Source: a virus
Lineage: Duplodnaviria; Heunggongvirae; Uroviricota; Caudoviricetes
Reading direction: 5' to 3' (one strand)
Virus record (IMG/VR): IMGVR_UViG_2698536454_000004
DNA: 25,537 nt
The position numbers were made by a program. The stretch's first letter is position 1; every line of letters begins with the position of its first letter. This document shows, one piece after another, positions 18,001 to 21,000 of this stretch.

Positions 18001-21000
18001 AGCCTTTTTCACGACGTAACCAGCTTTCAAGACATTCCACGCCACCAGCACGACGGATCACTGCCTCATTGCGGAACACGGCCCGAACGGCAGGATCATC
18101 CGCCAGCGGTTGTGATGCCGCCGGAACGGCACCACTGGCGAAAGATGAATAACGTTCCGGCTCAGGCTCCAGCAGAACACGCCCCTGCATAAACAGGGGC
18201 ATCAGCTCTGAACCTGGCCTGAACAATACGATCCCCATACGCGGGGCAATTTCAGGGGTCAGTAGTGCTCTCACGGTCACCTCAATGAACGGTATCGAGC
18301 AGCTTTAACAGCTCAGGGAATCGGGATTCGAAGAAATGCGGCTGCGTCTCGCGCGGATTTGCAGGACTGGTGATGTTCTTGCCGAACATGCAGCCTTTCG
18401 CCGTCAGCGACCAGAATTTTTTGATGTTGTTAATCGCGGTACGGCTGTATCGTTCGCGCTGCTCGACGATCCCCAGCTTCACCATCTGGTGATATGCCTG
18501 ATTAGCTGTCAGGCGGATACCATACTGCTTCAGCAGTGCACTCAGTGACAGCGTGGGGCGGCTTGAGCCATCAGGCGCGTCAGCAGGAGCATCAATGGCA
18601 TAGCGCGGTGCCAGATTCGGTAAGCCAACAGCCTCCTGGAGTTTCTGACAGGCACCAAGCACTGAAGAGTTAGACAGGTTTAATTCCCGGCGCATAAAGT
18701 CCAGCAGAATCACACCAGCCTGCATCTTGTCAGCAGCCTGTCCGGATAATTTTTCCGGTGCGCTGGTTACCATGTCGAAAGTACGGATCACCTTCAGATG
18801 GAATGACGGGCTGATCCACATTGCATAGGCATACACCAGTTCTTTGCAGACATACGTCCCCTGGTTATTTCCGCCACGAATAACGTTAACTGACTCTATA
18901 TTGACCGAGTTGCAAATCTGCAACTCGCTTATTAAACGCTCAGTTTGCTCATTGCGGAGCCAGAATGCAGGCTTATGCTTATCCAGAGAACCAGCAGCCC
19001 TGTGCAGATCGTTCAGGCTGTAACGCCCATAAGCATCACGACGAACTTCAATACCATCAATGACCATCAGATTATTCATACTTCGTTTCTCCTCTTGATC
19101 AGGCGGCTGCACCCGCCGTTTTCTCGTACTTACTGATAGTGATCTCGACCTTCCCTTCCGGGATAACCGGTCCCCACTCCACCAGCATTCTTTTCACCTG
19201 ACTGTCGTCTTCCCACACCCCCGCGTGGGTCAGGGCGTCAAACAGCGCCTTGTTATAGTTGTCCAGATCGCGGATCCTGTTATCCGGAGGAAACAACACG
19301 ATCTCCACTGAAGCAGGTGCCGACGTTGGTTTCGGCAGACGACGTAACTGCTCAACTATTGCTGCGCACGCCGCGCTCTGGAATTTTCGCCCCGCCGCGC
19401 TTATCAGGCTCTTACCAGCAAACGCCCCTTTGTTGGGGTGTCGCCAGTACGTGTTCACGCTGGGCGGAAAAGGCAGGATCAGCTTCATACTTTCAGGCCC
19501 CTCTCATGTAACCAGTGGGTTGCACGCAGCCTTGCGTTTTCCTCACCGGCAAGCAGTGAGCGGATAATCCCGACCGCCTCGCTGTCGTCGTCCTTCACCG
19601 CGGTATGAAGCGTGATGCCCCGGGCCACGCCACGCTTTATCGTGATGACGCCTTTTTTCTCCAGTGCGCGAAGATGCTCCACCGCTGCATTCACTGAACG
19701 GTATCCCAGCATGGTTGCCACCTCCTGATTGGTTGGCGGGAAGCCACGTTCTTTCTGATAAGAAATCAGCATATCCAGCACCTGCTGCTGGCATTGAGTT
19801 AACGTCGTCATGCCGCCATCTCCCTGACCAGTTTTTCTGCCTGCTGGCGAACCTGCGCCAGAAAGGCCTCACCACATGCCTCAAGTTCATCGCGCCCGAT
19901 GTAGCTGATTGCCGGTCCCTTCCAGGTCTTGTCGAAAACAGCAATAGCACCAGCGAAGAAAGCGCCTGTCGGCACCTGCTTCTCATCCTTCGGGATAAAC
20001 CAGGCAGGCAGTTCAAAACCAATACGCCCGCGAATAAAAGCAATATGATCTGCATCTTCCGGCCACCACACTTCGCTGGTGGCAGCTTTGATCAGGAAAA
20101 CATAGCGCCCGCCTTTATCACGCATGGCACTGGCATGCTTCATGATGTAACGCATGCCGGTGATGTATTGCCCCTCATGCTGACTGGCGCGGCTGTATGG
20201 GGGATTACCAAAGGCAGCACCTTTAAGCTCCGCAAGGCGTTCTGACCAGTCATGCGCCAACGCGTTGTCTTCCGCCGTGTAATACGCAGCACATTTGGCG
20301 TTATCACCGTCAGTAAACAGATCCAGAACAAACGGGCCAAACAGAGTGTTAATTCCCCAGAAAATGTTGTCCGGCGTGCGCCACTGATCGCCCACTTCCT
20401 TCAGTTCATGGGCTGGTTTGTTCCGCAGTTCCGCCAGCGCCTGGCAATATTTATTACTCATTAAGCCCCCACGTAATTCCCTGAGAGATACCACTCTTCA
20501 CCTGATGCAGCCCGCTTACTGCTTTTCCGTAAACACCGTTCACGACGTGCCAGAAAATTGTTTCGTTCTGGCTGGGAGTGGCTTTCACGGAATGCCGCCA
20601 TCCACACCGTTGCAGCACGACGGTATAAGCCCCTGGACTCCAGTTCTTCCGCCTGGCGGGTCAGGCACAAAATCACCCGCGGGTCGTTAGTGCCGACATA
20701 GAAATTGCGCACAGGTCTGGTTTCACGAACTGGTTGTGGTTCCGGATCCTGCGCTCTCTCAGTCAGGCGCGGGAAATGTCTGTGTGTATCTCCTTCACAA
20801 CGGTGAGCCACACGCCCACTCTGACGTAACTTGCTTGCTGACTGCAGAACGCGCTGCCGTGAGTAACCTGCAAAAGCATCCGCAATGTCTCCGGAAGTAC
20901 AGCCCGGATGGGCTTCAATGAATTTCTGAACATCATTCAAAAGACTCATGCTCACCCCCTGAATCCTGCCGGGATCTGGCTGTAGTCCACATTGTCGTAA

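Follow-up and report, generated by a model that had tools for sequence, protein, structure and literature searches.

A common phage-encoded LexA-type winged helix with a conserved helical tail in place of the autocleavage domain, a candidate RecA-insensitive LexA surrogate

The only characterised phage-encoded truncated LexA homologue is gp6 of the Bacillus tectivirus GIL01, which is 44% identical to B. thuringiensis LexA, binds the palindrome GaCACAnnTGTGtC at −43.5 and activates the late promoter P3 (PMC6182141). On the host side, the non-cleavable lexA3 (Ind−) stops the SOS response and the LexA-dependent induction of Gifsy prophages but not that of the CI-type prophage Fels-1, and in Gifsy prophages the slot after DinI is taken by a LexA-controlled antirepressor (PMC3121763). 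Here we describe a LexA-like gene in a lambdoid prophage, a tailed virus of the Caudoviricetes, IMG/VR record IMGVR_UViG_2698536454_000004, of which a stretch of 25,537 nucleotides was analysed (this whole stretch is referred to as the window). The gene lies on the minus strand, runs from an ATG at 19811 to a stop codon at 19485–19487, and encodes a protein of 108 amino acids (aa). The best explanation of its make-up is that the protein, a sequence-specific DNA-binding regulator, derives from the N-terminal domain of a gammaproteobacterial-type LexA, the S24 protease/dimerisation domain having been replaced by a helical hairpin of 33 residues. The gene and its parts are as follows.

19485–19811, minus strand: LexA-like gene, 108 codons plus stop, PHROG 362 family (open reading frame list, sequence and profile matches)
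19608–19811, minus strand: codons 1–68, LexA-type winged helix-turn-helix (Pfam, AlphaFold2 model, superposition on 3JSO)
19656–19697, minus strand: codons 39–52, recognition helix SVNAAVEHLRALEK (in LexA SPNAAEEHLKALAR; pairwise alignment)
19587–19607, minus strand: codons 69–75, variable linker
19488–19586, minus strand: codons 76–108, two-helix hairpin, proposed dimerisation element (model, conservation, and ratio of nonsynonymous to synonymous substitution rates, dN/dS)

Compared with gp6 of GIL01 and Bam35, the protein is alike in being the product of an early gene of a temperate phage and in having a LexA DNA-binding domain without the cleavage domain. It differs in that gp6, at 66 aa, ends just past the wing and has no tail, whereas the protein of the window adds 33 residues; the non-LexA palindrome and the activation of a late promoter are likewise features of gp6. 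BLASTP gave no alignment between the two, and since gp6 is also tailless and akin to B. thuringiensis LexA, they look independently derived. The lexA3 protein and the LexA 1–84 fragment, both host proteins, serve as models for how a RecA-insensitive LexA-type binder may behave. The 1–84 fragment is a weakly binding monomer that ClpXP removes by way of the newly made C-terminus; in contrast, the phage protein carries an additional, conserved helical domain and ends differently (…GLKV).

The LexA ancestry of the first 68 residues was supported by each of the methods applied. Pfam LexA_DNA_bind (PF01726) matched residues 1–65 over its entire 65-position profile (E 2.9e-19, 69 bits against a cut-off of 23.7), and the top match of phmmer against the PDB was the E. 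coli LexA DNA-binding domain 1LEA (E 6.9e-16). Pairwise alignment with E. coli LexA by BLASTP gave 39 identities over 90 residues (43%, E 8e-22), with identity at about 66% in residues 38–66 and about 43% in residues 1–37 by hand count on that alignment. The AlphaFold2 model, with a mean predicted local distance difference test score (pLDDT) of 80, contained helices at residues 6–22, 28–35 and 40–52 and strands at 56–59 and 65–68, and it superposed on chain B of operator-bound LexA (3JSO) with a root-mean-square deviation (rmsd) of 1.3 Å over 68 columns at 50% identity. A preliminary description of the locus had aligned the 108-aa product with the N-terminal winged helix of E. coli LexA and had held the S24 module to be missing, and both statements are borne out: a Pfam search found no match to Peptidase_S24 (PF00717) in the protein, which stops at residue 108. 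The NCBIfam lexA equivalog TIGR00498 scored 70.8 bits, under its cut-off of 110.95, and its match spanned only positions 1–91 of 203. The protein has the PF01726 winged helix of a canonical LexA and lacks the S24 domain with its Ser/Lys dyad, a conserved Ala-Gly scissile bond in a cleavage-site loop and the equivalog score; it is a LexA-domain protein, not a LexA.

Beyond the winged helix, the chain passes through the linker, where the indels of the family alignment fall and where pLDDT is below 50 (residues 71–75), into the hairpin, which the model builds as helices 74–87 and 93–103 with pLDDT 87–88 at residues 81–100. Leu86, Leu87, Ala93, Ala97, Leu101, Glu103 and Arg104 are invariant among close relatives, the tail is still recognisable in relatives at just 38–49% identity, and Ala97 and Leu101 are invariant in relatives of 38–66% identity. 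Pairwise dN/dS (Nei–Gojobori, against two homologues of 82–88% identity with unsaturated dS) was 0.13–0.14 for the whole gene, 0.03–0.09 for the winged helix (codons 1–68) and 0.24–0.27 for the tail (codons 76–108). The gene is under purifying selection in winged helix and tail alike, and the C-terminal 33 residues are a conserved domain under such selection, not a leftover stub. Foldseek comparison of the tail with the PDB returned no significant match, only poor-rmsd ones to regulators of the MntR, MarR, Rrf2 and BlaI types. The amphipathic hairpin presumably supplies the dimerisation that the S24 domain gives LexA. The tail was also considered as a relic cleavage site or a substrate for cleavage in trans, which was rejected: the 'AGE' aligned to LexA Ala84–Gly85 is not conserved, close relatives have Lys or Asn opposite Gly85, and the model makes this segment a helix.

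The protein matched phrog_362 with E 1.1e-59 (residues 1–108 against profile positions 1–106 of 106), and the distant relatives in loci L008 and L010 of our comparison also matched this family over their full length. PHROG 362 carries the label 'transcriptional repressor', which is an annotation rather than an experimental result. At the DNA level the gene is 100% identical to that of Escherichia phage Kati and 97–99% identical to those of SfV (orf42, 'unknown'), SfII, mEp460, 1720a-02 and many Stx2 phages, and existing annotations read 'LexA family transcriptional regulator', 'LexA DNA binding domain protein' or 'transcriptional repressor'. It was found in 2233 of 5426 complete E. coli genomes (~41%), in up to four copies each. 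A profile search of 1.8 billion representative sequences recovered about a dozen clusters below 50% identity that share the winged helix-turn-helix plus tail architecture, and the full-length 108-aa form predominates in clusters of 2527, 782 and 374 members. Many other short proteins (140–250 aa; P0128, P0129, P0135, P0138, P0140 and others) contain two tandem LexA_DNA_bind stretches, apparently without S24. The gene is thus common and already annotated by homology, and its existence is no surprise to specialists; full-text literature searches found no functional study of the PHROG 362 LexA-like family. The parts seen of a 'bully phage' preprint on the carrier 1720a-02 ascribe the inhibition of rivals to Cro and do not mention the LexA-like gene. 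New here are the conserved helical tail, the tight module of LexA-like gene, RusA, DUF968 and Q described below, and one subgroup in which the gene is preceded by an SOS box and accompanied by a candidate antirepressor of the Gifsy type.

The likely DNA specificity was read from the residues with which E. coli LexA contacts its operator, taken from secondary sources: Ser39, Asn41, Ala42, Glu44 and Glu45 of helix III (PMC3091678), together with the Arg52-Lys53-Gly54 motif, which is also required (PMC8607333). The protein of the window keeps four of the five helix-III contacts (Ser39, Asn41, Ala42 and Glu45) and has Val at position 44; at the motif it reads Lys52, Lys53, Gly54, so that Lys53 and Gly54 are kept. 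Across the family Ser39 is invariant and Asn41 nearly so; Arg64 and Gly65 of the wing, which are the same as in LexA, are invariant too. Set beside E. coli LexA as a whole, the phage protein shares the winged-helix fold and Ser39, Asn41, Ala42, Glu45, Lys53, Gly54, Arg64 and Gly65; it differs in the missing S24 peptidase/dimerisation domain and conserved Ala-Gly site, in Val for Glu44, in its hairpin, and in lying in a phage early operon where lexA is an autoregulated chromosomal gene. Judged by these residues, a CTGT-like half-site is the probable target of the E. coli-type protein, perhaps with a changed preference at one base, and occupancy of SOS boxes is plausible on this ground.

The reading we favour, to which we give a probability of roughly 45%, is that the protein stands in for LexA at SOS-type operators during lytic growth, as a surrogate that is insensitive to RecA and probably dimeric. 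In its favour are the retained contact residues, the purifying selection on winged helix and tail, the strong SOS boxes that recur in carrier phages and the place of the gene amid SOS circuitry in one subgroup (both below). When LexA is bound to its operator, an extensive interface between its N-terminal domains acts jointly with DNA binding (PMC3159453), so a protein with only this domain could plausibly bind cooperatively. According to the proposed mechanism, the hairpin would dimerise the protein, with the N-terminal domains also touching each other on the operator as in LexA, and the dimer would bind CTGT-type, SOS-box-like palindromes. It would be insensitive to RecA*, having neither cleavage site nor catalytic domain, and the independence from RecA proposed in the preliminary description agrees with the missing autocleavage module, without which RecA* cannot inactivate the protein as it does LexA. 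Upon destruction of the phage's own cleavable CI, pR would fire and the protein would be made from the early-right operon and would then re-repress LexA-controlled promoters while host LexA is depleted. It would act on host SOS genes, on phage modules with a LexA box (such as the methylase with a box at 15208–15227, below) and on LexA-controlled antirepressors of rival prophages. As the phage's own CI is of the S24 type and lexA3 spares the CI-type Fels-1, a LexA surrogate would leave its own phage unharmed and put rivals that depend on LexA at a disadvantage.

The setting of the gene in the window fits expression from such an early-right operon. The minus strand carries, in order, a pR-like promoter candidate, cro, a CII-like gene, a replication gene (HTH_36/DnaD-like), a PerC-like gene, Dam, the LexA-like gene, RusA, a KilA-N gene, a DUF968/HNH gene and the Q antiterminator. 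The members nearest to the gene and those that bear on its expression are listed here.

23125–23751, plus strand (divergent): CI-type repressor with HTH_3 and Peptidase_S24 (PF00717 E 9.2e-28, PF01381 E 1.2e-09)
23054–23082, minus strand: weak pR-like promoter candidate for the early-right operon (TTGACC-17-TAGCAT, from a consensus scan only)
20461–20955, minus strand: PerC-family (YfdN-like) putative transcriptional activator, directly upstream of Dam
19808–20494, minus strand: Dam-family N6-adenine methyltransferase, upstream of the LexA-like gene (PF05869 E 1.2e-45)
19099–19488, minus strand: RusA Holliday-junction resolvase, downstream of the LexA-like gene (PF05866 E 6.1e-15)
18282–19112, minus strand: KilA-N gene, in this allele without an SOS box

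The CI-type repressor carries S24, so induction of the prophage is expected to proceed via its RecA*-stimulated self-cleavage and not via LexA. A consensus scan found no further promoter-like site on the minus strand between the pR-like candidate and 19811. The stop codon of the Dam-family gene and the ATG of the LexA-like gene share the four bases ATGA at 19808–19811, and the stop codon of the latter and the ATG of rusA share ATGA at 19485–19488. The earlier placement of the gene in the nin region, coupled translationally to Dam upstream and RusA downstream, therefore matches the sequence: both overlaps are present, and the gene falls between the replication gene and Q, within the early-right operon. 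The true start of the Dam-family gene is probably the ATG at 20461 rather than the end at 20494; its homologue in phiSTEC1575 is annotated at 654 nt. The PerC-family gene accompanies the LexA-like gene in several contexts (L007, L094, L095, L096). The 5' part of the KilA-N gene holds a 27-nt imperfect inverted repeat (18888–18945, 74% complementary, 4-nt spacer). A PADLOC scan for defence systems gave only a marginal match, to a CARF-labelled model (E 3.6e-4), which is not meaningful.

SOS boxes were sought with a position weight matrix (PWM) trained on 20 E. coli boxes, whose scores are approximate, both in the window and in a survey of 80 viral loci whose protein is 98–100% identical to that of the window. 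Up to 7 kb on each side was covered, many loci being shorter. The sites found recurrently, and the gene that holds the one in the window, were these.

14183–15235, minus strand: type II-like N6/N4 DNA methylase gene, 350 aa, downstream of Q
15208–15227: near-consensus SOS box CACTGTTTATTTTTACAGTA (also written TACTGTAAAAATAAACAGTG), an exact match to CTGT-N8-ACAG
At the methylase start, in 25 of 80 loci plus one variant: SOS box, also in L010 at 8739–8758, with a close variant in L096 at 8904–8923
Inside the CI-type repressor gene, in 25 of 80 loci: SOS box, for example at about 4043–4062 in L012, and also in L001 at 14248–14267 and in L003 at 836–855
Between rusA and a KilA-N variant, after a hairpin, in 5 of 80 loci: SOS box, also in L095 at 5748–5767

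The box of the window scored 22.5, in the range of the training boxes (none of 300 shuffles reached 20), and overlaps codons 4–10 of the methylase gene. A relaxed PWM scan of the window found it as the sole SOS site, the LexA-like gene having no box of its own. Its position and recurrence suggest that the methylase is a LexA-regulated moron, and the box is a possible target of host LexA, of the LexA-like protein, or of both. In L010 a Cas1-like gene (PF01867) and an AcrVA2-like gene (PF26125) adjoin the methylase (9794–11390). The box within the repressor gene, a consensus one (TACTGTTTTTACATACAGTA or TACTGTTTTTATATACAGTA), falls near codon 70, between the helix-turn-helix and S24 domains, and could mark an internal promoter, a roadblock or an antisense transcript. 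That of the KilA-N variant (TACTGTATTTATGAACAGTG) lies with its hairpin ~85 nt upstream of KilA-N, directly after rusA (at 7765–7784 in L067, and in L054, L071 and L075; at another offset in L029), and the variant looks like a LexA-controlled antirepressor-type gene. An obligatory linkage of an SOS box to the LexA-like gene was considered and dropped, as the three recurrent boxes follow particular mosaic modules. The carrier phages are rich in LexA-type operators, yet no single site is obligatorily tied to the gene.

Several observations weigh against occupancy of SOS boxes. No strong SOS box was present in the stretch covered in 37 of the 80 loci, so that the gene has no consistently linked target in cis. 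None of 12 family representatives has Glu at position 44; of 13 full-length LexA-type representatives, which serve only as a rough control at this position and at 45, 10 have it. In 5 of the 12, all distant relatives, Glu45 has given way to Asp, Gly, Leu, Ile or Thr; these lie in a lambdoid prophage context of the same kind, and those that bear a name are enterobacterial. This variation argues against a universal need for a canonical SOS box, and the residues indicate that the family as a whole is not locked to one. The conservation of contact residues thus holds for Ser39, Asn41, Ala42, Glu45 and Lys53-Gly54 of the protein itself and fails at Glu44 and, across the family, at Glu45. Finally, the one described precedent, gp6, has changed its specificity and activates transcription.

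Some of these observations also favour the strongest alternative, in which the protein is a phage-specific transcription factor with its own non-SOS operator that activates or represses a phage promoter and times the early-to-late transition, like gp6, a truncated LexA homologue with its own palindrome and P3 as the activated promoter (PMC6182141). Besides the family-wide loss of Glu44 and the variable Glu45, it would account for a gene whose place in the early operon is always upstream of Q and just a few genes from it, and four PHROG families match the LexA-type domain of the window protein, so phage proteins with this domain have diversified. Against it, no conserved non-SOS palindrome turned up around the gene or in the part of the window close to Q: the inverted repeats over 15200–23200 comprised the 27-nt repeat of KilA-N and small palindromes, none SOS-like, which also disposes of a conserved cis operator beside the gene, and none was a candidate for a gp6-like late-promoter site. 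The region after Q differs wholly among carriers, so a conserved late-promoter target is unlikely, and the E. coli subgroup keeps four of the five LexA contacts under strong constraint (dN/dS 0.03–0.09). On balance we regard an operator of its own as somewhat unlikely.

Comparison of 11 distinct genomic contexts, with protein identities of 38–100%, showed a conserved order around the gene. RusA is the next gene in 9 of the 11 and at most one gene away in the other two, with a 4-base overlap in the cases checked. DUF968 and then Q follow wherever the locus is long enough, Q always being a few genes away, and a DNA methyltransferase (Dam or C5 type) lies upstream in seven contexts. This order persists across lambdoid backbones that otherwise differ, despite differing immunity regions and replication modules (HTH_36/Phg_2220_C, lambda-P type, DnaT/DnaC type), and the Q families vary as well (PF03589 or PF06530). 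Downstream of Q, carriers of an identical protein have stx, the methylase or other genes. The constancy of RusA across differing replication, Q and immunity modules would also suit a DNA-binding accessory of recombination or repair that works with RusA (and the DUF968/HNH protein), for example in targeting or modulating junction resolution, and has no role in transcription. We consider this improbable. The LexA winged helix reads operators of specific sequence, and nowhere in the protein is constraint stronger than at its recognition residues; the synteny could be mere inheritance in one mosaic module; and RusA occurs in other lambdoid elements, such as phage 82 and DLP12, that are not known to have the LexA-like gene.

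One subgroup of these contexts (L008/L009 and L010) has a strong SOS box (PWM scores 20.6 in L008 and 26.6 in L010) followed by orfX (75–82 aa, phrog_1813) upstream of the LexA-like gene, and a terminator scan found an intrinsic terminator 5' of the box in L010. The stretches that hold this arrangement, or its counterpart in SPN3UB, are these.

L008, 5560–5961
L010, 5476–5951
Salmonella phage SPN3UB (L097), 3161–3734

In SPN3UB the orfX homologue directly follows DinI behind an SOS box (score 26.5), the slot held in Gifsy prophages by the antirepressor, and by this position orfX is a candidate Gifsy-type antirepressor. Since the LexA-like gene of L008 and L010 stands downstream of the SOS box and orfX, it belongs there to an SOS-controlled operon; it occupies the same type of locus as the Gifsy dinI-antirepressor-irsA loci (PMC3121763), unlike the gene of the window, which is without its own SOS box and depends on the early-right operon for its transcription. 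L008 has a short repressor without an S24 domain. Just upstream of its SOS box, in a nin-like region on the opposite strand (3863–5232), lie an RNase_A_bac toxin gene and a faintly CdiI_2-like neighbour.

That the gene is a decaying, functionless remnant of a captured lexA, as a LexA alignment continuing through the linker to 'AGE' might suggest by pointing to truncation of a full lexA, is effectively refuted by selection (dN/dS 0.13–0.14 overall and 0.24–0.27 even in the tail), by the dominance of the 108-aa form in the big clusters, by an architecture that persists at 38–66% identity, and by an aligned Gly that is not conserved in a tail built as helix rather than as a relic cleavage loop.

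To return to the LexA surrogate, a more far-reaching version would have a RecA-proof protein, present in ~41% of complete E. coli genomes, shut the host SOS regulon again during lytic growth and so silence competitors' LexA-controlled antirepressors, colicins and other SOS-triggered elements, to the gain of phages with a self-cleaving CI, for which it would be a general weapon in prophage competition. In Gifsy-like relatives, with the gene behind its own SOS box, it would also make a negative-feedback pulse generator for the antirepressor operon. This version we hold to be doubtful. If the protein does occupy SOS boxes, many lysogens of E. coli, Shigella and Stx phages would hold a factor that uncouples LexA-regulated genes from RecA after induction. 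This would bear on SOS mutagenesis and persistence after exposure to antibiotics or DNA damage, on the induction hierarchies of co-resident prophages, Shiga-toxin phages included, and on the reading of SOS reporters in lysogens. If the protein has its own operator instead, it would be a second, independently evolved phage conversion of LexA's DNA-binding domain into a dedicated regulator. The gene is small, easy to handle experimentally and carried by the well-studied phages SfV, SfII, mEp460 and 1720a-02.

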